A DNA stretch of 30,838 nt, taken from the IMG/VR virus record IMGVR_UViG_2917413769_000005; one strand, 5' to 3'. Position 1 is the stretch's first letter, and each line of letters opens with the position of its first letter. Positions 3,834 through 30,838 of this stretch are shown piece by piece. The stretch is from a virus (taxonomy: Duplodnaviria > Heunggongvirae > Uroviricota > Caudoviricetes). A program made the position numbers and the translations under genes. The notes beneath the pieces were generated by a model. It was given only the letters and a program-made list of their open reading frames with translations, was not told the DNA's origin and searched no databases.

Positions 3834-4151
3834 ATGAGCAAAAAAAACGATAACGCCATTACGCTGGCAAAACCCGTTGTTCGCGGCGATGAGAAAATTA
3901 CTCAGGTAACGATCACTGATGAGATCAAACAGGCTGGTTCCCTGCGCGGGCTGAAGCTGGTTAACGTGATGAATATGGATGTGGATTCAGTAGCGATATT
4001 GCTGACCCGCGTCACGTCACCGCGCCTCAAACAAACCGAGATCAACGAAATGGATACCCGTGATTTTGTCAGCCTGTCAGAAGCGCTCGTCCCTTTTTTG
4101 ACGCCTGCGGGGTCTGGAGCATCGAACGAGGCGGAGACGGAGAATCAGTAA
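3834..4151 (+). CDS. E: tail assembly chaperone E
   Basis: ATG at 3834 (MSKKNDNAITLAKPVVRGDEK) with GGAG 9 nt upstream; contains slippery T_TTT_TTG at 4094-4100 near its 3' end as in P2 E. Confidence 0.8.
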   Translation: MSKKNDNAITLAKPVVRGDEKITQVTITDEIKQAGSLRGLKLVNVMNMDVDSVAILLTRVTSPRLKQTEINEMDTRDFVSLSEALVPFLTPAGSGASNEAETENQ

Positions 4152-4312
4152 CACTCCTGCGGTTCGACCTGATCGACGATCTGGTCGCTGATATCGCGGT
4201 TGTTTTCAACTGGCCGCCCTCTGAAGTCTTCACGATGGAACTGGGCGAAGTCATAGCCTGGCGTGAGCGGGCGGCTGTCCGAAGTGGAGCCAGTGACAGT
4301 GAAAAGCCTTAA
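3834..4312 (+). CDS. tail assembly chaperone E+E' fusion made by -1 programmed ribosomal frameshift
   Basis: Slippery heptamer TTTTTTG at 4094-4100; the -1 frame reads on through ...WPPSEVFTMELGEVIAWRERAAVRSG... to TAA at 4310-4312, overlapping the start of T. Confidence 0.6.
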
Positions 4313-6797
4313 TATCCGCGTCGCGTTCAGCGCGATCGATAAACTTACCCGCCCGGTCAATGCCGCCCGCCAGAGTGCGGGCGGTTTGTCTGAATCCCTC
4401 AAAAAAACGCAATCCAGCATTAAAGATCTGGACAGCCAGTCCCGCACGTTCAACCGTCTGCGCGACAGCGTACAAAAGACCTCTCGCAAAATTGACGAAG
4501 CCAGCCGGACGCTTGAAGGGCTGAATCAGGCGCAGCGGGAAGGTACACAGCTTACAGACAAGCAAAAAGCACATATGGCAGCACTGGCCGCAAAGCTGGA
4601 GCGCCTTAACTCTGCACGCACGCAGGAAATGGTTAAGCTGCGTGCTGCCTCACAGGCGCTGCGCAGCCACGGCGTTTCACTGGTCGGCAGTGATCGCACC
4701 ATTCAGAGCGCGATACGTCGAACCGAACAGTACAACCAGACGCTGGAGCGGGAACGGCGACAGCTTGCCGCTGTCACACAGGCACGGGCGCGCTATGACC
4801 AGATGCAGCAAACAGCGGGTAAACTTCGCGGCGGTGGCACGATGGCCGTTGCCGGGGCCACTGCTGCCGGTTACGCAGCGGGACGCTTCTTATCCCCCGC
4901 TGTTGGGTTTGACCGGGAAATGTCCCGCGTGCAGGCGCTGACCCGTATAGATAAAAGCTCAACAGACTTTTCAGCACTTCGTGAACAGGCCAAAAAGCTG
5001 GGCGCTGAAACGCAGTTCACCACGACTGACGCCGCCAGCGGGCAGGCGTTTCTCGCTATGGCCGGTTTCACTCCGCAGGCCATTCAGGCAGCACTGCCCG
5101 GCGTGCTCAATATGGCACTGGCCGGTGGCATGGATTTAGGTGAAAGCGCCGATATCAGCTCAAACATCCTGTCTCAGTTCCGCCTCGATCCCAAAGAAAT
5201 GGATCGCGTCAGTGACGTATTAACTGGCGCGTTCACACGTACCAACACCGATCTGCAAAATATCGGTGAGGCTATGAAGTACGCCGGGACAGGTCTTTCC
5301 AATCTTGGCGTCAGTGTTGAACAGACAACAGCCATGATCGGCGTGATGGCAAACGTTGGCCTGCGCGGGAGTATCGCCGGGACAGGATTACAGGCCGCGT
5401 TTTCACGCCTTGCCGCGCCAACCGGCAGGGCAAAAACCGCTCTCAAAGAACTGGGAGTAGACGTTGCTGATGCCACGGGGAAAATGCGCCCTGCTGAAGA
5501 GGTTCTCACTGAACTCTATAAAAAGATCAGCAAGTACGGCGATACCGACAAGCTCTCTTTCTTTAAAGATATCGCCGGTGAAGAGGCGTCAAAGTCATTG
5601 CAGGCACTGGTTATGTCAGCCGGGAGCGGCGAACTTCAAAAGCTGCTGGAAGCACTGAAAAACGCCAAAGGTGAGGCACAGAAAGCCGCCAAAATAATGG
5701 CGGATAACCTTGATGGCGATCTCAAGAATCTGGACAGCGCATGGGAAGGGTTTCGCATCCAGATTAACGATCTCGTCGATAACCAGCTTCGCGCCCTGAC
5801 TCAGGGGCTGAGTGATGTTGTGGGGAATATGACGCAGTGGGCGAAGGAGAATCCGAAGCTCGCTCAATCCCTGCTGGTTGTCGGCGGCAGCATTCTGGCA
5901 CTGACCGCCGCCATTGGCGGCACATCGCTGGCGATCGGCCTGCTGATGGGGCCACTGGCTAAACTCCAGTTAGGTTTTACCCTATTGACAGGGGGCGCAA
6001 CCGGAACAATCTCCGCCCTACGAACGCTCGGAACAGCTTCCGGCCCGGCAATGGCAAGTGTGCGCGGTTGGGGGCCTGTTCTCACATCAATGCTTAGTAA
6101 GCTGCGAGGCATATCGATCATCACGCCCGGCATTCGTGCCGGTCTTATGGGTGCGTTTCTTTCCCCAGGGGCTGCATTAGGATCTCTGTTCAAAAACATC
6201 GGAATGCTCGCTCTTCGCCTGACAGGCTTTACGACCATATGGAGCATTATCACGACCTCAGTATCTGTACTGGGTGCAGCGCTCTCACTTCTACTTAGTC
6301 CGATTGGTCTGATAGCGGCGGCTTTTATCGCTGCCGGATTGCTAATCTGGAGATTCTGGGAGCCGATAAGAGCCTTTTTCACCGGTTTTTTCAGCGGAGT
6401 TATGCAGCAACTGGCACCTTTCCGTGATGCCTTTTTCCCTTTGACGCTGGCCTTCTCAGCAATAGCCAAAGTCGTTGGTGAAGTCTGGGACTGGTTTGTA
6501 AAACTCTTATCACCTGTGGAAAGTAGCCGTGAATCCCTTGATAAATGCGCATCAGCAGGGGAAACATTCGGTAAAGTCCTGGGTAGCGCCCTTCAGTTGC
6601 TGCTATTACCTCTGACAACCCTCATGGAAGGCATTGGCTGGGTACTGGAAAAACTCGGCCTTATCCCTTCTGGTCTGGAAGCTGCACGCCTGAAAGCTGA
6701 AAGCCTTAAAAAAGACCCTGTTATGTGGGAGTGGGATCCGCAGCAGAAAAAAAATGGTGCAAAAGGGATGGAACTGGTCGCCAGTCTCATCAGGTAA
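4299..6797 (+). CDS. T: tail tape measure protein, N-terminal and main part (frame 0)
   Basis: Long coiled-coil-rich then hydrophobic Gly/Ala-rich protein typical of tape measure proteins; likely GTG start at 4299 (GGAG 9 nt upstream; alternative starts 4263-4293); frame ends at TAA 6795-6797 just after an A8 run. Confidence 0.8.
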   Translation: MKSLNIRVAFSAIDKLTRPVNAARQSAGGLSESLKKTQSSIKDLDSQSRTFNRLRDSVQKTSRKIDEASRTLEGLNQAQREGTQLTDKQKAHMAALAAKLERLNSARTQEMVKLRAASQALRSHGVSLVGSDRTIQSAIRRTEQYNQTLERERRQLAAVTQARARYDQMQQTAGKLRGGGTMAVAGATAAGYAAGRFLSPAVGFDREMSRVQALTRIDKSSTDFSALREQAKKLGAETQFTTTDAASGQAFLAMAGFTPQAIQAALPGVLNMALAGGMDLGESADISSNILSQFRLDPKEMDRVSDVLTGAFTRTNTDLQNIGEAMKYAGTGLSNLGVSVEQTTAMIGVMANVGLRGSIAGTGLQAAFSRLAAPTGRAKTALKELGVDVADATGKMRPAEEVLTELYKKISKYGDTDKLSFFKDIAGEEASKSLQALVMSAGSGELQKLLEALKNAKGEAQKAAKIMADNLDGDLKNLDSAWEGFRIQINDLVDNQLRALTQGLSDVVGNMTQWAKENPKLAQSLLVVGGSILALTAAIGGTSLAIGLLMGPLAKLQLGFTLLTGGATGTISALRTLGTASGPAMASVRGWGPVLTSMLSKLRGISIITPGIRAGLMGAFLSPGAALGSLFKNIGMLALRLTGFTTIWSIITTSVSVLGAALSLLLSPIGLIAAAFIAAGLLIWRFWEPIRAFFTGFFSGVMQQLAPFRDAFFPLTLAFSAIAKVVGEVWDWFVKLLSPVESSRESLDKCASAGETFGKVLGSALQLLLLPLTTLMEGIGWVLEKLGLIPSGLEAARLKAESLKKDPVMWEWDPQQKKNGAKGMELVASLIR

Positions 6798-22195: not shown

Positions 22196-22705
22196 TCAGA
22201 AAACTGGATTAATTTTGCGGTGGTAGAGCACTTCCCACAGAAGCGATATCAACTCTTCCTGCCTGATATCCACGGCTTCACTGGCGTCATATTTAGCCAT
22301 CAGCTCATTGATTCGCTCAACAGACAATGGCCCTGCGGAATTTACCGCTGATCGGGAAGATGGGAGACAGCTTTCTTCAGGCGGATGCTCTTCACGCCAT
22401 TTCTTTGCCGCCCTCTCATTCATCAACTGCCATTCGGGATATCGGTTAAATAGCTCACGCTCGGTACTGGTTCGCGCATCATGGCCTTCATCTGCCAGCC
22501 GCGCTGGTTCTGGCTCGCAGCTTTCAGACAAAGCAATATCGTCGGGAGCGTCAAACGGTTTTAACCCCTTGCAGGTGCAGCAAATGCGATCATTAAAATA
22601 ATACTTTTCCTTGTAGTGCAGCTCGTTACCACACTTACGGCATCGCTTAATTTTGTTACTGATGAAATCAATTACTTCCTGCTCTCGCTGTTCTTCGTCA
22701 AACAT
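22196..22705 (-). CDS. hypothetical zinc-ribbon protein
   Basis: Cys cluster CRKCGNELHYKEKYYFNDRICCTCKG; sits where P2 has orf91; 5' end overlaps the 3' end of A; start uncertain (22705 or 22747). Confidence 0.5.
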   Translation of the reverse strand: MFDEEQREQEVIDFISNKIKRCRKCGNELHYKEKYYFNDRICCTCKGLKPFDAPDDIALSESCEPEPARLADEGHDARTSTERELFNRYPEWQLMNERAAKKWREEHPPEESCLPSSRSAVNSAGPLSVERINELMAKYDASEAVDIRQEELISLLWEVLYHRKINPVF

Positions 22706-25281
22706 ACGCGCTGCCCCTGATTCCTGGTGCCAAACAACCTGTCCCACGCAGCCGGATCAGCTTTTTTCAACATTTCCGCATAGCTGCCAACGGGATCATG
22801 CCTGATATCTCTGCTGTCAACATTATGACTTAGCTTCATATGCTGCCACAAATCGGCAGTCTTACGGTCAGCTCCGTTATCTTTTCTGCGCCTCAGCTCT
22901 CCGCTGCTGGTTGCGGAGACAATAAAGCCATCAATTCGCAAACGCTCACCGCGTAGCAATAACGTTAACTGACCTGTGCTCAGTTCTATGCCTATAGATT
23001 TGGCAAAATCATCCAGTGCCGCAATGCGATCGACTGATACAGGAACTGGCCCGGTAACAGCAGGCATATCCCTTTCCTGCTGCCTCAATTCCTGAGCAAC
23101 TTTTAGATAGCTCTCGGCCCTGGCCTGCTCAATATCATCACAATCTGATGCCGTAATGGCATTAGCCAGCGCCTCAAACTCATCAGCAGGTGATTTTTGC
23201 CGTTCCGGTTTGTAGTTTCTGATGCTTTCGTTGAGCCTTTTTTTCTGCTCGTGGGTCATTTGACCAATTTCATACTGTTCAGGCTCAACTGGTGGCGAAT
23301 TTTCACCCTCTGAATTTGTATGTTTTTTGACCTCAGTACAGTTATTGACACGAGTCCTAGAGGGCGCGGACGCGCCCCGAAGGTCAAAATCAAAGTCAAC
23401 GGCCTGCCCGGAGTCGTCTAAAACTTCCGGTTTCTTACGCACAATGCGGTAGGTATGCAGGCGGGTTTCAATTGGTGGGATGTGAACGGCCGGCATCATC
23501 AGACCTTTGATAAGATCCAGATACTCGCCGTAATCATTTGGTTCGTCTTTCTGCTGGTACCAAATGCGCAACGGCAGATCACGGCGGGCAACCAACGCCC
23601 CGCCTTGCAATTGGGTGTATTGCTGCCAGTCGCCAGCATCCGCAGCACGGTGCAGCTCAGCAAATAGCGGGTTTATCTTGTCGGCCTGTTCCTGATTGCG
23701 GAACCGGCGCAGCTCACGCCAGACAGATACCGGCGCGCCGCCCAGAAACTGAAACTGACGGATGCCCCAGCAAGATGCCCAGGCGGTTGCATGTTTTGAA
23801 GTTTCTTTCAGCGGCCTGCCGCTCTCGTCGTCGGTTTCACCGTCGAGCGCGTAGCCGTCAATATTCTTACTGATGTACTTCACCACATAGCCGGTGGCGC
23901 TGCCGATTTCATGATCGATCGGCTTCATATCAAAACGCGGTTGGTTGCCGTGTTTGCCCTGCAACTCTTCCGCATCCTCGCGGGTTGCGTAGTCTTCCAT
24001 CACTTCCAGCAGCTCGGCAGAATGTTCCGGCAGGGAGAACAGCAGGCCGTGCCAGTGCGGCGTACCATCGTGATGAGACTCAGCCACCCGCAAACCAAAA
24101 ACAGGGATTTCACGGCGGGCCAGCTCAGCGCGGATCTGTTGCCATACCCGGTTAAGATAACGCTGCGTGGCTCTTGGGCTGGCACCGTTCCATTTGGCAT
24201 TACGATGACCGAATACGGTATATGCGTGGTATTTGGATGGCGCTGTCAGGGTAAAAAACTGTCCCGCGTATCCGCTTTCGGTGGCGACTTTCTCAAAACC
24301 ACCAATGCGGGTCATGAGTTCAACGCGGCGTAATGCTGGATTAGAAATGCTCTTATCGATCTGCTCAATAAGCGAAATACGCTCTTTGGTGTCCTGGTCT
24401 TCCAGCTCAAGGCGAGCCATGATCGCGCGGCTGCGTTTGCGCCTGGCATCCCACTCATCAACGTGGTGCTTACTGCAATAAGGCGCAGCGCCCCGCTTCA
24501 CATCACCAAAGGCGATATGCAGGTGCTCACGCCAGCGCGCCGCGTACTTTTTCAGGTTACGATGCCAATAGCGATCATCCAGCATCTTACTGATGCCAGT
24601 AGTAGCCTCATCAATAAACAGCGTTCCCCGGCAATACTTTGCCCAGCTCGGAGGCGTCAGGAAGAAAAGCCGCGCGAGGATAGCCGCTTCGGTGTAAAGG
24701 TATCCGGCATATTTGCGATCACTCTGAGTCTCTACCGTTTCGTGAACTTCGCTCAGCACAGACCGCATATAGATAGCAATATCCTGCGCCAGCAGCTCAA
24801 CATCTTCCGGCGTGAAATCCGGCAGGCGGTTAAAGCGCTCAACCAATCCGTGAAGAGTGTGAAACGTGTGGTAAAGCGGGTTTACCCCTTTGAATGCTGT
24901 ATCAGCCTGAGATTTAGCCTCATCGGTCACCGCAATAGCGTATTGCTCATTCACCATGTTGATGGGCGGGAGATCCCTGCGAATAATATCGCGTAGCGCC
25001 AGACGGGCGATGTGCCTGCCCTTCATGGTGTGAATGCTGTCAATACGGGAAGCCAGACGCAGGCGAATAAAGCGAGGTAGCGGCGCAAGGGTAACTTTCA
25101 CCCACGCCAAAAACTCCTGTTCTTGACCCAGCTCGACTAGATCAACAACGGGAGTCTTATCAACACAAATGGCAGCTTTCGGCTTCTGCCATTCGTAAGC
25201 GTACCGGGTGGCGTCTGGTGCGCTACCCGGATACGGAGGGGGCGGCGTTGGAGCGCCACGCCCACTGGCTGCGGTGGTCAT
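22672..25281 (-). CDS. A: replication initiation endonuclease A (rolling-circle HUH type)
   Basis: 869 aa; HUH-like motif ESHHDGTPHWHGLLF and Tyr region GYVVKYISKNIDGY as in P2 gpA; position upstream of the cos-proximal accessory slot. Confidence 0.85.
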   Translation of the reverse strand: MTTAASGRGAPTPPPPYPGSAPDATRYAYEWQKPKAAICVDKTPVVDLVELGQEQEFLAWVKVTLAPLPRFIRLRLASRIDSIHTMKGRHIARLALRDIIRRDLPPINMVNEQYAIAVTDEAKSQADTAFKGVNPLYHTFHTLHGLVERFNRLPDFTPEDVELLAQDIAIYMRSVLSEVHETVETQSDRKYAGYLYTEAAILARLFFLTPPSWAKYCRGTLFIDEATTGISKMLDDRYWHRNLKKYAARWREHLHIAFGDVKRGAAPYCSKHHVDEWDARRKRSRAIMARLELEDQDTKERISLIEQIDKSISNPALRRVELMTRIGGFEKVATESGYAGQFFTLTAPSKYHAYTVFGHRNAKWNGASPRATQRYLNRVWQQIRAELARREIPVFGLRVAESHHDGTPHWHGLLFSLPEHSAELLEVMEDYATREDAEELQGKHGNQPRFDMKPIDHEIGSATGYVVKYISKNIDGYALDGETDDESGRPLKETSKHATAWASCWGIRQFQFLGGAPVSVWRELRRFRNQEQADKINPLFAELHRAADAGDWQQYTQLQGGALVARRDLPLRIWYQQKDEPNDYGEYLDLIKGLMMPAVHIPPIETRLHTYRIVRKKPEVLDDSGQAVDFDFDLRGASAPSRTRVNNCTEVKKHTNSEGENSPPVEPEQYEIGQMTHEQKKRLNESIRNYKPERQKSPADEFEALANAITASDCDDIEQARAESYLKVAQELRQQERDMPAVTGPVPVSVDRIAALDDFAKSIGIELSTGQLTLLLRGERLRIDGFIVSATSSGELRRRKDNGADRKTADLWQHMKLSHNVDSRDIRHDPVGSYAEMLKKADPAAWDRLFGTRNQGQRVCLTKNSESRK

Positions 25282-26297
25282 TTCACCGCATCCATGTAAG
25301 CACTTATGAAGGTTGCTGCGACTTCCGCGCAGATGGCATTTCCGTAGGCGCGCAACTGGCCCACTCTTCCGGCAACCCCATTAACCAGCGGCTTAAGTCC
25401 TGGTTTAACTGGCCTCCACTTTCCATCATGGCAGAAGAGCCAGTCAGCATCTTGCCAGAAGCCGTTAACCTGATGGGGCCAATCATTTTTGATTGCTGGG
25501 TCAGACTGCTGCCCGTCATCGCCGGAGTGATCCCCCTCCCGCCCCTGGTTCCGTCCGATGCACTCGGAGTTGTCCAACCGGATAACTGTGCTGTCACATC
25601 CAGCCGATCCGTTGACAGCTTCCCGTTGCGAATCCTCCCTCCCTGATACCCCCCTTTCCCATCCGTTGCTGTTGGAGTATTCCACCCCGCTAGGCAGGCA
25701 AAATCTTGCAGATTCGACTGCCTGCCCGCCATCATTCTGGCTATAACTTTCAATGGATCCTGATACGCGTTTTTGACGTTGCTCGCGTTCGGAGTGGGCC
25801 ACCCAGAAGAGGCGCTGTCTTATATGCGGGGCACCGAAGCCCGCAGCGCAAAGATCGAGAGCTGTTGCGGCGTAGCCCGTTCCTTCCAAGTCAGTCTGTA
25901 CAATGTCGAACCAACCGAGGCCGTCCTTGCTTGCAACCTGCTCACCAAAGACAGTCTCAGGGCGGCACTGCTCAATGAGATAGTGGAAATGGGGCCAAAG
26001 GTGCCGCTCGTCAGTAACCCCTGCTCTTTTGCCTGACTGGCTGAAAGGTTGGCACGGGCAAGAGCCTGTCCAGATAGGGCGATCGTCCGCCCATCCAGCC
26101 CGGCGCAGGGCGTAAGACCAGACGCCGATCCCTGCAAAGAAATGGCATTGAGTGAATCCGTTAAGGTCATTTGGTGTTACTTCCTCAATAGAACGGGTGT
26201 CAACAACGCCCGGCGCTATGTGCCCAGCGTCAATAAGATTGCGCAGCCATTGAGCCGCAAAGGGATCGATCTCGTTGTAATAAGCCGTCACAATCAC
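25278..26297 (-). CDS. C5-cytosine DNA methyltransferase (frame integrity uncertain)
   Basis: Frame A carries FFAGIGVW (motif I-like), GSCPCQPFS (PCQ), FGEQV (ENV-like), APHIRQRLFWV (motif VIII-like) and C-terminal LRAYGNAICAEVA (motif X-like); GTG start overlaps the Dam stop; middle part is low complexity. Confidence 0.6.
   Translation of the reverse strand: MIVTAYYNEIDPFAAQWLRNLIDAGHIAPGVVDTRSIEEVTPNDLNGFTQCHFFAGIGVWSYALRRAGWADDRPIWTGSCPCQPFSQSGKRAGVTDERHLWPHFHYLIEQCRPETVFGEQVASKDGLGWFDIVQTDLEGTGYAATALDLCAAGFGAPHIRQRLFWVAHSEREQRQKRVSGSIESYSQNDGGQAVESARFCLPSGVEYSNSNGWERGVSGREDSQREAVNGSAGCDSTVIRLDNSECIGRNQGREGDHSGDDGQQSDPAIKNDWPHQVNGFWQDADWLFCHDGKWRPVKPGLKPLVNGVAGRVGQLRAYGNAICAEVAATFISAYMDAVK
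25307..25819 (-). other. alternate-frame open segment inside the C5 methyltransferase gene, with G-W-x-T-P-x-A-x-D repeats and a motif IX-like RWLMGLPEEW
   Basis: Frame open from the TAA at 25820-25822 to the stop at 25304-25306; three repeats (GWPTPNASN, GWNTPTATD, GWTTPSASD) differ mainly at this frame's synonymous positions. Confidence 0.4.
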
Positions 26298-27184
26298 GCC
26301 CCCTCAGCACACTGCCCGCAGCTCTCACAGTTCCCGCAACCACCTGCCGGGCATCCCTCAACGATGCCCAAAGTGCCGATCACCTCTTTGGCCTTCTGGC
26401 GGTTGCTGGCGTCAGTGCTAACAGAGCGCTGCACGTCGATTTCATGCAGGCGGAAACGGTGGTAAATCTCGCGGGTGGTTTCGGTGTCACTGTTGGAAAT
26501 GACAACCGGCGCGCCATATTTGCGGTTCACTTCCAGCAGCTCCGCCGCTAACTGGCGGTGGTGCTTCTCGGTGAATGGCTCGGTGTGGTATTGGGTGAAA
26601 TTGGCGGTTTCGCTGGCAGGCAGGTACGGGGGATCGCAGTAGATGGCTTCATCCGTTCCAACCATCACTTTGAGGGTGTTTTGAAACGAGCTGCACAGAA
26701 AAATAGCTTTGGTGTCGTTGGCCTTCTCAGCAAACTGGCGGATCTCCGCCTCCGGGAAGTAAGGCGCGCTTTTGTGCTGACCAAACGGGACGTTATAACC
26801 ACCGCTCTGGTTGTAACGCACCACGCCGTTGTAGCCGTGGCGGTTGAGGTACAGAAACAGAGCCGCGCGGGCCACATCAAGCAAGCCTTTTGTACCGTTG
26901 AAAATGCGGCGGTTCTGTAAGTATTCCTCTTTGGAATTGCCGGTCGCAAAGAGCGGGCGGGCAAGATCAATCACCAGCTCAGGATTGCTTTTTACCTCAC
27001 GATAAAGGCGGATCAGATCTGGGTTGATATCCGCAAGAATGTACCGGCGATAATCGGTATTGAGGAACACGGAAGCGCCGCCAACAAAAGGCTCAACGAG
27101 GCAACCAGCCTTTGGTAAATGCGGCAGTAATTCAGGCATCACGCGGCTTTTGCCACCGGGCCATTTGAGTAGAGATCGAATCAT
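26294..27184 (-). CDS. DNA adenine methyltransferase (Dam-like, D12 class)
   Basis: N-terminal KWPGGK and catalytic DPPY motifs; RBS AGGAGA 9 nt before ATG 27184; Cys-rich C-terminal tail. Confidence 0.85.
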   Translation of the reverse strand: MIRSLLKWPGGKSRVMPELLPHLPKAGCLVEPFVGGASVFLNTDYRRYILADINPDLIRLYREVKSNPELVIDLARPLFATGNSKEEYLQNRRIFNGTKGLLDVARAALFLYLNRHGYNGVVRYNQSGGYNVPFGQHKSAPYFPEAEIRQFAEKANDTKAIFLCSSFQNTLKVMVGTDEAIYCDPPYLPASETANFTQYHTEPFTEKHHRQLAAELLEVNRKYGAPVVISNSDTETTREIYHRFRLHEIDVQRSVSTDASNRQKAKEVIGTLGIVEGCPAGGCGNCESCGQCAEGA

Positions 27185-27253
27185 CTTGCTTTCTCCTGGG
27201 TGCAGGAAGCCCGGCGCGGTGATGCGCCTGACTACTGGTTAATCATTCAGTGG

Positions 27254-27646
27254 TTAATTGACTGCGCCATCCGGCGCGAGTGGTGGTGATTCGCGTAACG
27301 CCTGAATTTCAAGGCGTGGCGCAGCGTGATCGGGAAACTCCCACGGCAACGCCGCAGCAAGCTCGGCAAGGCGCTTAATGCCTAACATCAGGCTCACTTT
27401 GTCCTGAGAGCTGAACTGTTCAAAAGGCATAGTGAGATGGGAATGAGTCAGCGACGGCAGATCTTTAAACCGCTGCGCAGCTTCGTTTGCCAGCAGGATG
27501 ATCACCTTTTTCTGAGTCTCGCCCAGGCGATTGAAACGGCTCGCCGTGTCATTGGTGCGGGAAACTGAAATGCTCGACTGCAAACGGGCGCGCTGTTCAA
27601 GGAACATCTGACGCCCGGATACTGGTTTCTCTTGTCCGATATTCAT
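27254..27646 (-). CDS. hypothetical early-region protein
   Basis: ATG 27646 preceded by GGGGGATAGGA; sits in the cox-to-A early region where P2 has B and orf80-83; no motif recognised. Confidence 0.45.
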   Translation of the reverse strand: MNIGQEKPVSGRQMFLEQRARLQSSISVSRTNDTASRFNRLGETQKKVIILLANEAAQRFKDLPSLTHSHLTMPFEQFSSQDKVSLMLGIKRLAELAAALPWEFPDHAAPRLEIQALRESPPLAPDGAVN

Positions 27647-27816
27647 AATCCTATCCCCCATCACTGCCACTTATCAGGCGCACCACTCGCAAGTAATGCC
27701 TCGGATAAGAGCCGGGTTTTAGCCATGCCCGGCGCATGGTTTTGTGGTAATTTCGTGATGCCGCCTTCCAGCAAGAAGCGAGCGGCACAACTACTACCCA
27801 CCCAAAAGGAGACACC

Positions 27817-28104
27817 GTGTCTAACGATAAAAAGCCAGATACACAGGGAGCATTTAACAAGCTGATTTCTACGCTTACTCAAGCCAATGAAATGACCAGG
27901 TATCAGACGAATGCCGTTTCATTACTTGCTGTAGCGATGTTTAATGCCTTAACTCCTGAGCAACAGGAAAAAGTCTTGTCTACTCTGGAATCGACGGCTG
28001 CTCTTTCAAATTCTCCATCTGCAATTGCAGGTGTTTCATCAGAAATTCACGCTGAACTTGCGCTTCTTCTCCCTGCTTTTGCAAAGCGTCGCAAACTCTC
28101 TTAA
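27817..28104 (+). CDS. hypothetical protein, divergent from 27254..27646
   Basis: GTG start with near-ideal RBS AAGGAG 5 nt upstream; 3' part overlaps the minus-strand ORF 27980..28342. Confidence 0.4.
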   Translation: MSNDKKPDTQGAFNKLISTLTQANEMTRYQTNAVSLLAVAMFNALTPEQQEKVLSTLESTAALSNSPSAIAGVSSEIHAELALLLPAFAKRRKLS

Positions 28105-28342
28105 TCAATGATTCGATTTGTGCACCGATCTCAGTAATGGAATCGGTGCTTTCCGTTGTATTTGGGTCGCAAACTTCAATGTGATGTTCTTCGAACCATT
28201 TAGTTACCGCACGCCCATCAGCCGCGCGATAATGAATGTAATAATGGTTGCCGCTTGCTATGTATTTAGCGCAAGCCTCAACGGTGCCTTTCTCGCCGCT
28301 GGCTTTAATTGATACTTGCTGCCCTAAGTCGAACTTAAACAT
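27980..28342 (-). CDS. hypothetical protein
   Basis: 120-aa ORF with a globular-looking N-terminal half; ATG 28342; palindromic site in its upstream region. Confidence 0.45.
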   Translation of the reverse strand: MFKFDLGQQVSIKASGEKGTVEACAKYIASGNHYYIHYRAADGRAVTKWFEEHHIEVCDPNTTESTDSITEIGAQIESLIKRVCDALQKQGEEAQVQREFLMKHLQLQMENLKEQPSIPE

Positions 28343-28374
28343 AATTAACCCCGTTATTTAGGTGAGTGAATGCA

Positions 28375-28394
28375 CATCACTTAATAAAGTGATG
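28375..28394. promoter_or_regulatory. perfect palindrome CATCACTT-AATA-AAGTGATG in AT-rich intergenic DNA; putative operator
   Basis: 8-bp arms and 4-bp spacer, 33-52 bp upstream of the ATG at 28342. Confidence 0.35.
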
Positions 28395-28428
28395 ACAGGC
28401 AGAAAAAGTTTTATCAGTTACTTAATTA

Positions 28429-28656
28429 CTAAAGCAGTTTTCTAAATAATCTTGCTAAGGCACTAAATAAGCCTTTGTTTATCTTCTTCGTATAAACAAA
28501 AGGCTTACTCATACCTTTAATAAAGCGCACCTTATTTGGTTCCGGTTTAAAGAAACGCCCGTCCGGGCATTCAATCCAGCCGCGTGTATTGCGGTAATGC
28601 GTGACCTGGCAACCGTGCTTTAACAGGCTGGCAAGTGATGGGGCGTTATCGTTCAT
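28429..28656 (-). CDS. hypothetical protein
   Basis: 75-aa ORF; ATG 28656 directly after the stop of the upstream small ORF; AT-rich cargo-like DNA. Confidence 0.4.
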   Translation of the reverse strand: MNDNAPSLASLLKHGCQVTHYRNTRGWIECPDGRFFKPEPNKVRFIKGMSKPFVYTKKINKGLFSALARLFRKLL

Positions 28657-28668
28657 ATTGTGTACCTG

Positions 28669-28842
28669 CTACAGTTGCCTACGGGCTTTTAGTTCAACTT
28701 CTTCACGGCGGGTTTTATATTCAGCAAGTGCCTTAGCTCTTTGCTGCTTTACTTTTCTACTCCGCAGTCGGATTAAAAATTGAATTAAATACAACGCAAG
28801 AACAGCAAAGAGAGAAAGCCCGATAACCATTTCAGTTTTCAT
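28669..28842 (-). CDS. small predicted single-pass membrane protein
   Basis: Hydrophobic segment VIGLSLFAVLALYLIQFLI followed by a basic tail; start ambiguous (28830, 28842 or 28857). Confidence 0.4.
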   Translation of the reverse strand: MKTEMVIGLSLFAVLALYLIQFLIRLRSRKVKQQRAKALAEYKTRREEVELKARRQL

Positions 28843-29092
28843 AACCTTTACCACCATTCAGCCGTTCAATAGTTCGCATTGCTTCAGCTAAGGCAAAATC
28901 ACGCCCATAATAATTATCAATACCGCCGTTATCATCCCGCTTATTTATCAAATACGAATTGCTTCGATTAAAAGCATTGCGTGATGATTTGCGGATAGTG
29001 AAGCCGTTAAAGACATAAACGTTTTTGCTTACCTGAACCAATCCCGGAATGCTTCCGGCATGTGACCCATGCTGTGAATAGCGCTTTTTCAT
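28832..29092 (-). CDS. hypothetical protein
   Basis: ATG 29092 lies 2 nt after the cox stop (TGATTATG); position like P2 orf78. Confidence 0.4.
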   Translation of the reverse strand: MKKRYSQHGSHAGSIPGLVQVSKNVYVFNGFTIRKSSRNAFNRSNSYLINKRDDNGGIDNYYGRDFALAEAMRTIERLNGGKGYEN

Positions 29093-29094
29093 AA

Positions 29095-29376
29095 TCAAAG
29101 CCCAATCCACAGTAACCAGGCATCGCGCTGCTCTTTCGGACGATTGAAATAAGCGTCACGCATCGCACGGTTGAATTCAGGGATGTAGATCCAGTTCTCT
29201 GAGCGGTTCGTCAGAGACTCAGGATTCTTCATCTGAACCACCGGCAGCTTGCCGTCACGAACCATATCGCCAACCGCATTGGCGGTTTTACCGATCATTT
29301 CGGCAAATTTTGGGGCAGGCACCGCATCCACCGGATGGCGTAATTCAATGTAGCCCTCTGGGTATTTCTCTTTCAT
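29095..29376 (-). CDS. cox: Cox-like excisionase / early regulator
   Basis: C-terminal ...NWIYIPEFNRAMRDAYFNRPKEQRDAWLLWIGL resembles P2 Cox; divergent from C; RBS AAGGGGA. Confidence 0.75.
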   Translation of the reverse strand: MKEKYPEGYIELRHPVDAVPAPKFAEMIGKTANAVGDMVRDGKLPVVQMKNPESLTNRSENWIYIPEFNRAMRDAYFNRPKEQRDAWLLWIGL

Positions 29377-29448
29377 GTGTAATAATCCCCTTTGTTGTTC
29401 AGCCGCTTCTAGCTGGCTGTAGCTGCTTCTGGCGGATGTTTTAATGAG

Positions 29449-29490
29449 TCAGATATGACCCATCGAAAATGAGGATAGATCAGATATGAC
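29449..29490. promoter_or_regulatory. C/cox switch region with two 11-bp direct repeats TCAGATATGAC (putative C operator half-sites)
   Basis: Exact copies at 29449-29459 and 29480-29490, 31 bp apart; the second overlaps the C start codon; P2 C is known to bind direct repeats. Confidence 0.45.
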
Positions 29491-29791
29491 AAACTCGTCA
29501 AGCTTGGGCGAAAAAATTCGCCTGATTAGAGAGGCTGAGGGAGTAACAAGGACACAACTAGCTGAAATGCTGGAAATTCCTTATCCATCCATCACAAACT
29601 ATGAAATGAAAGGAATACAAGTTACTGAAAAGTTTATGGTTAGCTTCACAAACCACCCAAGATTTCAGAAATACACACTTTGGCTAATGACTGGCAAAAC
29701 TGCACCATCTGCGGGGCAGGTATCCCCGCCTCTCTCCCCTGATGGGCCAGGAAAAACAATGTCACGCCGATCAGGCCTCAAGGCTGGCTAA
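29486..29791 (+). CDS. C: C-type immunity repressor
   Basis: 101-aa ORF with N-terminal HTH-like segment (GEKIRLIREAEGVTRTQLAEMLEI), divergent from cox and upstream of int as in P2. Confidence 0.75.
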   Translation: MTNSSSLGEKIRLIREAEGVTRTQLAEMLEIPYPSITNYEMKGIQVTEKFMVSFTNHPRFQKYTLWLMTGKTAPSAGQVSPPLSPDGPGKTMSRRSGLKAG

Positions 29792-29857: not shown

Positions 29858-30838
29858 ATGTCGATTAAGAAGCTCGAAGGTGGTCAATATGAAGTAGACG
29901 TGTACCCGCGTGGGCGTAATGGAAAACGCATCCGCAGGCGCTTCGATAAGAAGCAAGAGGCAGTACTTTTTGAGCGGTATGTTGTAGTCAATGCCGACAA
30001 AAAAGAATGGTTAGGCGCGAGCGTAGATCGCCGCACCTTAAGCGAGTTGTTAGATACCTGGTGGTTGCTGTACGGACAAACGCTGGAAAATGGTGAGATT
30101 GAAAAACGGCACCTGAGCAAAACAATCAGGGCGCTGGGAGATCCAGCAGTAAACCGTTTAAGCAAACGTACGATAGCGCAACACCGTAGCCAGCGGCTGG
30201 ATGATGGGATCAGCTCCGCCACAATCAACCGTGATATGTATCGGCTATCAGGTATGTTCAGCGCGCTGATCAAACTGGATGAGTTCAGGAAGGAAAACCC
30301 CTGTAAGGGGCTGGAGCCACTGAAAGAAACGCCGCCAGCCATGACCTATCTCACAAAATCAGAGATCGGCAAATTGCTGGATACCCTGACAGGGGATGAT
30401 CGACGCGTAGCGCTGCTATGTCTCAGTACGGGTGCTCGCTGGGGCGAAGGAAGTACGTTACGGGGAGAGCAGGTTAATCACGGGCGTGTGACGTTCCTCA
30501 AAACCAAAAACGGGAAAAAGCGAACGGTTCCGATATCGGAAGATCTGGAGAAAGAGATCAAGACCAGCGACACAGGGCCACTGTTCAAAGTTGATTATGA
30601 AAACTTCTGCGAACGGCTCAAAAAGGTTAAGCCCGATCTTCCACGTGGTCAGGCTACGCATGTGCTTCGGCACACGTTCGCAAGTTGGTTCATGATGAAT
30701 GGGGGGAATATTATTGCGTTACAGCAGATTCTGGGGCACGCCAGCATACAGCAGACAATGGTTTATGCACACCTGGCCCCTGATTATCTGAAGCACGCAG
30801 TAACGTTAAACCCACTTGGTGGAGGGCTGACGATTTGA
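29858..30838 (+). CDS. int: tyrosine integrase
   Basis: 326 aa with C-terminal catalytic region HVLRHTFAS...LGHASIQQTMVYAHL; RBS GGAGGG; stop is the last codon of the window. Confidence 0.9.
   Translation: MSIKKLEGGQYEVDVYPRGRNGKRIRRRFDKKQEAVLFERYVVVNADKKEWLGASVDRRTLSELLDTWWLLYGQTLENGEIEKRHLSKTIRALGDPAVNRLSKRTIAQHRSQRLDDGISSATINRDMYRLSGMFSALIKLDEFRKENPCKGLEPLKETPPAMTYLTKSEIGKLLDTLTGDDRRVALLCLSTGARWGEGSTLRGEQVNHGRVTFLKTKNGKKRTVPISEDLEKEIKTSDTGPLFKVDYENFCERLKKVKPDLPRGQATHVLRHTFASWFMMNGGNIIALQQILGHASIQQTMVYAHLAPDYLKHAVTLNPLGGGLTI

Follow-up and report, generated by a model that had tools for sequence, protein, structure and literature searches.

Does a short open reading frame (ORF) that runs against the early genes of a P2-like prophage encode a protein, and if it does, to what kind of unit does it belong? 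The question is raised by positions 27254–29092 of a 30,838-nucleotide (nt) stretch of phage DNA (Caudoviricetes; IMG/VR record IMGVR_UViG_2917413769_000005), the whole of which we call the window. Its right end is the early and lysogeny region of a P2/186-like prophage. A preliminary description had pointed to six ORFs of 57–130 amino acids (aa) between the cox and Dam genes, all of which are present in the ORF list, and had read the convergent overlap of the plus-strand ORF at 27817–28104 with a minus-strand neighbour as either a mis-call or a cis-antisense pair. As first described, the interval is an ordinary stretch of small accessory early genes that includes fil. We propose, with a probability of about 0.6, that the interval is accessory sequence within the prophage's early operon and carries one reversed, autonomous cassette of the moron type. 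Morons, as defined by Hendrix and colleagues, are autonomous promoter–gene–terminator cassettes of temperate phages that are expressed from the repressed prophage; the non-essential P2 genes old, tin and Z/fun are examples. The early operon would be transcribed leftward from the cox side and hold five small minus-strand genes. The cassette, from about 27711 to 28163, would comprise nested dyads, an extended −10 element (TGGTAATTT), a leader hairpin, a strong ribosome-binding site (RBS), the gene for a 95-aa protein and an intrinsic terminator. The structural claims on the cassette are well supported; those on the timing of its expression, on what reads the dyads and on the function of the protein are not.

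The plus-strand gene and its convergent overlap

The ORF at 27817–28104 (plus strand) encodes 95 aa from a GTG start, and the near-ideal RBS ascribed to it is present as AAGGAG at 27806–27811, 5 nt before the start codon. Such an ORF might be a chance antisense frame among genes that all lie on the minus strand. This is the view of the RefSeq/PGAP annotation: a 94%-identical copy of the prophage is integrated beside cpxP in two complete Escherichia coli genomes, and in these two near-identical prophages minus-strand genes alone are annotated across the interval, with 27817–28104 left uncalled. Antisense ORFs of about 100 aa are also frequent in the window, so that one of 95 aa is, taken alone, no evidence of a gene. 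We nevertheless regard a chance ORF as highly improbable, since homologues and substitution patterns identify 27817–28104 as a real gene under purifying selection at the protein level. The closest homologues share 93, 91, 80, 67 and 62% identity, and an exhaustive profile search extends the family to members at 32–47% identity. Some of the family's members stand in contexts with no minus-strand partner (L003 and L014). The family is small, with 11 matches among 1.8 billion representatives, some of them partial and within long proteins; its members are 91–98 aa long and occur in P2/186-like prophages. The start codon interchanges between GTG, TTG and ATG at one site across the family, the RBS is conserved, and the protein matches phrog_10549 (E 1.5e-9). 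Substitutions between the window and L006 fall at plus-frame codon positions 1, 2 and 3 in numbers of 7, 5 and 25 outside the overlap and 8, 5 and 21 inside it; for L003 the corresponding counts are 15, 5 and 26 outside and 13, 9 and 27 inside. The excess at third positions thus holds even within the overlap. RefSeq annotation therefore misses a real gene family, both in E. coli prophages and in phage SopEPhi, a prophage of S. Typhimurium SL1344, where the unannotated family member is on the minus strand at 4028–4300 of AY319521.

The 3′ end of this gene overlaps the 120-aa ORF at 27980–28342 (minus strand) by exactly 125 base pairs (bp; 27980–28104), as had been reported. Matches of the 120-aa ORF to phrog_8618 and phrog_1935 cover residues 1–58 only, and these residues form a conserved, beta-rich N-terminal domain (about 28169–28342). 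The tail (27980–28168) crosses the cassette terminator and the final 125 bp of the plus-strand gene. Homologues of the N-terminal domain, 87–96 aa long, carry other tails, and the tail is found elsewhere only beside the plus-strand gene, where it is joined to two unrelated N termini (L006, 178 aa; P0017, 131 aa). The AlphaFold2 (AF2) model of the 120-aa protein is of low confidence, with a predicted local distance difference test score (pLDDT) of 57.7. Between the window and L006, amino acid identity in the overlap, counted by hand from the translations, is about 76% for the plus-frame product and about 45% for the minus-frame one. Third positions of the plus frame are second positions of the minus frame, so the same substitution counts reveal a lack of minus-frame conservation there: second positions are changed in 21 of 41 codons of the minus frame and in 5 of 41 of the plus frame, and the comparison of the window with L006 does not support purifying selection on both frames. 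These comparisons indicate that the tail, including roughly the last 40 codons of the ORF, is read-through into the inserted cassette up to the first in-frame stop, which arises from the plus-frame codons TCT ACT as TAG on the opposite strand. The C terminus of the 120-aa ORF would then be a by-product of insertion, and its annotation would need correcting.

The overlap could instead be functional, as a genuine cis-antisense pair that is either dual-coding or under mutual control at the RNA level, with convergent transcription or RNA duplexes setting the amount of the 120-aa protein and the output of early genes downstream. L006 and L007 show an overlap of equal length (125 bp) with the same minus-frame stop, the overlap in L013 is 98 bp, and every cassette lies within the early transcript, antisense to it and upstream of the replication genes. 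The overlap is moreover the best-conserved stretch (93–98%) when the window is compared with L007, from Yersinia; dual coding predicts such conservation, and the tail may not be purely passive. Against this stand the free change of minus-frame second positions between the window and L006, the unrelated N-terminal domains of the partners, the many cassettes that have no overlapping partner, and the recurring stop itself, which is explained by plus-frame codons (TCT ACT or ACT AAC) that read TAG on the other strand. We judge a functional overlap unlikely. Of the two options first offered, mis-call or cis-antisense pair, neither ORF is spurious and the antisense arrangement is real at the DNA level, but the two are not equal partners. 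Because the arrangement recurs wherever the cassette occurs, it appears to be a property of the inserted cassette and not a dedicated two-gene module.

Searches for a function of the 95-aa protein returned little. Its AF2 model has four helices and is all-helical, with a pLDDT of 62.6, and Foldseek against the Protein Data Bank (PDB) gave only matches with E ≥ 6.8; since model confidence is low and these matches are that poor, we draw no inference from fold. No DNA-binding motif was found in it, a protein-pattern scan of the genome contigs found no match, and tblastn with the 95-aa protein found none among GenBank phages, where only the distant relative P0020 led to SopEPhi. Our guess, from context, is that the protein is most likely an accessory factor expressed in the lysogen, for superinfection exclusion, counter-defence or host modulation.

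The conserved 5′ element, its predicted promoter and the terminator

The 95-aa gene and the minus-strand ORF at 27254–27646 had been described as diverging from a 170-bp region with hairpins, and the region does contain inverted repeats, at 27711–27716/27728–27733, 27723–27728/27734–27739 and 27759–27764/27782–27787. The first two form the core of a 5′ element (27711–27739, plus strand; one copy in the window) that, as set out in the next section, also precedes other small ORFs, or cargos. Dyad A is GCCGGG (27711–27716) with CCCGGC (27728–27733), and dyad B, CCATGC (27723–27728) with GCATGG (27734–27739), is nested with A around an invariant CCGGC. Conservation of the DNA extends over about 60 nt before the gene, even where protein identity has fallen to 34–47%. 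Dyad B occurs as CCATGC/GCATGG, CCACGC/GCGTGG, CCCTG/CAGGG, CGTGT/ACACG and CACGC/GCGTG. Stem B is 91.7% paired, 3 of its 6 pairs have changed on both sides, and its covariation score was reached by none of 500 shuffles. All these changes are Watson–Crick on both sides, with no G–U intermediates, so that DNA and RNA readings of the dyads are not separable by this means. If the cassette reading holds, an element that is short, near-invariant and marked by compensatory changes must be read by something specific. The dyads cover the −35 and spacer region, and their most likely role would be that of an operator or insulator.

Downstream of the dyads lies TGGTAATTT (27745–27753, plus strand), a predicted extended −10 element of the form TGnTAnnnT. 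The bases G27744, T27745, G27746, T27748, A27749 and T27753 are shared by all 35 aligned leaders, and the three inner positions of the hexamer vary. In short-form leaders, which have no leader hairpin, TGGTATTCT sits 8 nt further upstream, and this looks like selection to keep a −10 element in place. Long-form leaders carry hairpin C (27756–27793, plus strand) between the −10 element and the RBS, with core arms TGCCGC (27759–27764) and GCGGCA (27782–27787) and an inner stem CUUC/GAAG. A two-tier hairpin of this kind is found here in at least 7 sequence types and is followed by a CA-rich tract and the RBS. G–U pairs and folding energy gave hairpin C no strand preference (sense better in 14 of 34, p 0.71). 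RNAalifold on a MAFFT alignment recovered stem B alone, missing stem C because the variable loops misalign it. The tail after dyad B is TTTTGTGG in long forms and TATTCTGG or GCGTGTTA in others, and stem A is more stable than stem B.

Several known signals were considered for the dyads and rejected. Inspection by eye found no fit to a LexA box, to the P2 Ogr/186 B site (TGT-N12-ACA), to a CRP site, a DnaA box or repetitive extragenic palindromic (REP) elements, or to sigma-54 and sigma-28 promoters, nor any consistent −10 or U-tract that would make the element a minus-strand promoter or terminator. An H-type pseudoknot of A and B would leave a loop 3 of 1 nt, which is too short. Just upstream of dyad A, at 27670–27709, we also observed an imperfect 18-nt inverted repeat (CTTATCAGGC and GCCTCGGATAAG, 72% complementary). 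All cassettes at this site have it (L032, L041, L075, L090, L094, L104, L105 and L114), so it belongs to the insertion site and not to the cassette.

Directly downstream of the gene lies its own terminator-like hairpin (28122–28163, plus strand), GCACCGAT-N12-ATCGGTGC followed by TTTCCGTTGTATTT, with an 8-bp GC-rich stem and a T-run, inside the 120-aa ORF; a terminator scan did not list this hairpin. Other members of the family each have a terminator-like hairpin of their own 3′ of the gene, and these hairpins are unrelated in sequence between members. With a crude detector, such hairpins were found on the cassette strand in 16 of 38 distinct cargo 3′ flanks and on the opposite strand in 1 of 38. 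By the same detector, many cassettes located between cox and the repressor gene C (L033, L049, L058, L054, L047 and others) have no terminator. That site coincides with the position of the lysogenic promoter Pc in P2.

From these parts we infer the following sequence of events. Host sigma-70 RNA polymerase would initiate a few bases downstream of TGGTAATTT without depending on the early promoter, and the cassette would be active in the lysogen, where the early operon is repressed. In lytic growth, convergent transcription of the early genes would work against it. The reversed orientation would be forced, because a one-way terminator in the other orientation would truncate the early operon.

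A number of observations weigh against this account, as does the conservation of the overlap in L007 described above. The promoter is a prediction from sequence: a generic sigma-70 scan did not report TGGTAATTT, and there is no good −35 element. The outer pairing of hairpin C begins 2 nt after the −10 hexamer, which fits poorly with a start site 7 nt downstream; transcription could possibly start further upstream. Dyad B followed by TTTTGTGG resembles an intrinsic terminator, and the RNA hairpins of dyads A and B could not form together, a property that would suit an RNA switch as well as an operator. Terminators were detected in only 16 of the 38 cargo flanks, and transcription of cassettes at the cox–C site may continue into C and int; if it does, the element there would be an extra lysogenic promoter. 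For the protein itself, searches of Pfam, NCBIfam, PADLOC, PDB sequences and Foldseek gave nothing usable.

Part of this evidence favours a different account, in which the 5′ element acts as RNA, a leader or attenuator with A as anti-terminator, B and its U-tract as terminator, and hairpin C in addition. The RNA would be either a plus-strand transcript from further upstream or the early minus-strand messenger RNA. Besides the exclusive pairing of A and B, the U-tract and the close spacing of hairpin C to the putative −10 element, this account is favoured by the fact that all changes in stem B are compensatory and that hairpin C covaries across its sequence types. It is opposed by the lack of any sequence conserved between sites upstream of dyad A, and thus of a shared upstream promoter, and by the poor U-tract of short-form leaders and L013 (TATTCTGG, GCGTGTTA). 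Five positions of the extended −10 element are invariant while those between them vary, and the short form retains TGnTAnnnT but loses hairpin C. Stem B shows no G–U intermediates, hairpin C has no strand preference, and a search of Rfam 15 over 27200–29500 on both strands, with E up to 1, found no match to the 5′ element or to the palindrome downstream of fil. We consider an RNA-level mode of action improbable and retain the promoter and operator reading.

Sites, interchangeable cargos and known systems

Comparison of this slot among P2-like prophages, which the preliminary description had called for, showed that the cassette recurs at several sites in one orientation. The 95-aa gene lies between fil and the 130-aa gene in the window, L007 and L008; between cox and the repressor gene C, directly upstream of C, in L003–L006; between cII and fil in the 186-like L012, L017, L019 and SopEPhi; and at other sites in L013 and L014. 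In every case it has the direction of the repressor and integrase genes, against the early operon. In L017, which is near-identical to SopEPhi, a short-form element stands directly upstream of the family member; the upstream sequence of SopEPhi itself was not read. The early region of L007 (Yersinia enterocolitica) holds two small plus-strand genes, the 95-aa gene at 4001–4288 and, adjoining cox, a 62-aa ORF at 5494–5682 of the MSYDKK...KYP cargo family.

The element has a wider distribution than the gene. A pattern search matched 70 viral contigs, of which 1 was a chance match, 2 were too short to place and 67 were P2/186-like; those of the 67 with a marker gene have gpA (minus strand) to the left of the element and C/CI and Int (both plus strand) to its right. 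BLAST with the element alone led to E. coli prophages that lack the 95-aa gene and have the element before other small plus-strand ORFs. It is present in 82 of 5,426 complete E. coli genomes, always in unannotated DNA. Searched in genomes that each represent a species, it also occurs in Escherichia albertii, Pantoea, Erwinia, Kosakonia and Pectobacterium, while another five matches, from unrelated GC-rich genomes, were attributed to chance. BLAST also located it in the sequenced phages SEN4/SEN5, vB_YenM_42.18 and vB_YpM_115/117. Across Escherichia, Salmonella, Klebsiella, Yersinia, Pantoea, Erwinia, Kosakonia and Pectobacterium the element is almost invariant.

Behind this element we found at least 8 unrelated ORF families of 27–158 aa. 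None of the cargo families has a match in Pfam, and the three that match PHROGs match families without an assigned function. Homology between the three largest was rejected, with hhalign probabilities of 0.2–7%. Some cargos are very short, at 28 aa (L035, L070, L075, L085, L089 and L109) or 39 aa (L050, L078 and L081); the short cargos have an acidic tail and the motif FH(V/I)xxKPAP in common, as in MSDTDKFHVPRKPAPSPEKGKGGEEDED, and are below the standard length of gene callers. In Erwinia tracheiphila L094, L095 and L114 the cargo, a relative of the 78-aa family, is stopped after 15 codons, and the same three carry the sole mismatch seen in stem B (CCATT for CCATG). They are possibly a decaying cassette.

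The position of the 95-aa gene might suggest that it is no accessory cargo but a core lysis–lysogeny regulator, such as an auxiliary factor of the switch. It always lies beside or inside the switch and early region, in the direction of C and int, and stands directly upstream of C in L003–L006. Yet most P2/186-like phages lack it, close relatives of this prophage included, as do the sequenced phages with a single exception. Unrelated cargos can take its place at the same sites, and the protein has no match to a DNA-binding motif. A core regulatory role is therefore a distinctly unlikely reading. Among matching E. coli genomes only 2 of 36 are carriers, and the ECONIH4 class has TerB and DUF3927 genes instead. 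In E. coli CFSAN051542 (NZ_CP020835) the cassette lies at 4646866–4647300. Presence in some close relatives and absence from others thus goes together with deviating composition (GC content 0.43 in the gene, 0.54 in the window), as is found for morons.

The cassette also resembles morons in its own predicted promoter and terminator and in an orientation that leaves the host operon uninterrupted. It differs from them in that its cargo is one of at least 8 unrelated small ORFs that share a 65–110-nt 5′ element with nested dyads, and in that it sits inside the early lytic operon, not at a genome end or among late genes; its expression in the lysogen is here predicted. More tentatively, and short of what we would call probable, the nested-dyad element may mark a so far undescribed cargo-swapping slot of Peduoviridae, a shared socket that is read by a conserved regulator or as a structured RNA and controls these unrelated small proteins of the lysogeny strand. 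If so, the cargos would supply new small effectors, for instance for superinfection exclusion, counter-defence or host takeover, and, as they are placed convergently, their expression would vary inversely with early lytic transcription. This would be a new type of hotspot, in which small genes are swapped in against early transcription by means of the element, and the element would offer a handle on small prophage effectors beyond the reach of homology search.

The P2 hotspots that have been described hold large, multi-gene defence systems; here, in contrast, the cargos are small and the slot is defined by a regulatory element, not by flanking core genes. PADLOC gave no significant match for the six ORFs or for four distant relatives of the 95-aa protein (best E 0.009, 12.9 bits). 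What is alike is the turnover of genes at fixed prophage positions, which the accessible parts of two reports describe as rapid at the P2/P4 defence hotspots of P2-like prophages of Enterobacteria (PMC9122126; PMC13586616). In the accessible part of the second, a search for the terms 'cox' and 'early' gives no mention of the early region. The antisense RNA STnc6030 of BTP1 is expressed in the lysogen and has an exclusion function (PMC7067206). Like lambda OOP, P22 sar and STnc6030, the cassette is a short unit convergent with lytic transcription in a regulatory region; those act as RNAs, whereas here the evidence points to a protein under purifying selection. Anti-CRISPR and other anti-defence loci are known for interchangeable small genes behind a shared promoter region, and the swapping of unrelated small ORFs behind a conserved regulatory region at a fixed position is common to both. 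In the loci studied here, however, the cargo has no conserved aca-like regulator gene beside it, it faces as the lysogeny genes do and not as the early genes, and no cargo matches a known anti-defence family. The literature on the 186 switch, SopE/P2-like transcriptomics, P2 regulatory phylogeny and P2 hotspots, together with searches for the exact peptides, yielded no description of the gene, the element or the slot.

Flanking genes and intergenic sequences

Gene calls and profile searches place the replication endonuclease gpA at 22672–25281, a C5 cytosine methyltransferase at 25278–26297, Dam at 26294–27184 and Cox at 29095–29376, all on the minus strand, followed on the plus strand by a helix-turn-helix repressor (29486–29791) and the integrase (29858–30838). 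The lower GC content reported for the whole interval between Dam and cox holds for 27817–29092 (0.40–0.46) but not for 27254–27816, where both the minus-strand ORF and the divergent region, at 0.545–0.547, are the same as the window (0.54).

All six ORFs match a PHROG family, and the absence of recognisable motifs claimed for them stands, with respect to Pfam, for all except two: it fails for 28429–28656 and, weakly, for 28832–29092. Above cut-off, Fil was the only Pfam match among the six, with DUF4761 below threshold, a comparison that did not include direct alignment with P2 proteins; P2 orf80 and orf82 were assigned to Pfam families by way of the product notes of the SopEPhi record and the Pfam labels of genes at the same position in L017. 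As no further family exceeded its cut-off, none of the six is recognisable by Pfam as an ordinary P2 early gene (B, orf80–83).

On the minus strand, the 130-aa ORF at 27254–27646 belongs to a conserved P2-like family with no assigned function (phrog_7428, E 8e-67, full length); it has no match in Pfam, NCBIfam, PADLOC or PDB sequences and is annotated as hypothetical in E. coli relatives. The 75-aa ORF at 28429–28656 is fil, a homologue of the phage 186 cell-division inhibitor and the sole one of the six with a Fil match (PF10893, E 4e-24, 84.5 bits against a cut-off of 25; phrog_816, labelled 'cell division inhibitor', E 3e-23); RefSeq names it 'phage filamentation protein Fil family'. The 57-aa ORF at 28669–28842 (phrog_19198, E 2e-31) is called in RefSeq relatives and, with a single hydrophobic stretch (VIGLSLFAVLALYLIQFLI) and a basic tail read from its translation, is probably a small membrane protein. 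The 86-aa ORF at 28832–29092 is DUF4761-like (phrog_2492, E 1e-24); its Pfam match (E 5e-5, 23.8 bits) is under the 27-bit cut-off, and relatives have a DUF4761 protein at the same position.

The perfect palindrome claimed at 28375–28394, within the intergenic region downstream of fil, is an inverted repeat whose 8-nt arms are fully complementary, forming an 8-bp stem; the 4-nt spacer, AATA, is not palindromic. Its RNA fold is unremarkable (z −1.3 and −2.3), there is no T-run beside it on either strand, and in relatives one pair of the stem is mismatched. The 86-bp intergenic region as a whole (28343–28428; GC content 0.31) is 88% conserved across prophages in which the next gene differs (L002, with TerB, is one case) and may serve as a regulatory site or mark a junction of recombination. 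In L002 (3548–4161) and L028 (1829–2445), from E. coli ECONIH4 and 0H24, the slot equivalent to 27647–28342 encodes TerB-family and DUF3927 proteins on the minus strand, with the junction sequence on the fil side retained. Two further observations concern the methyltransferases. The C5 enzyme, which not every carrier of the 5′ element has, adjoins Dam (25278–27184) with overlapping stop and start codons, and each cassette dyad contains CCGG.

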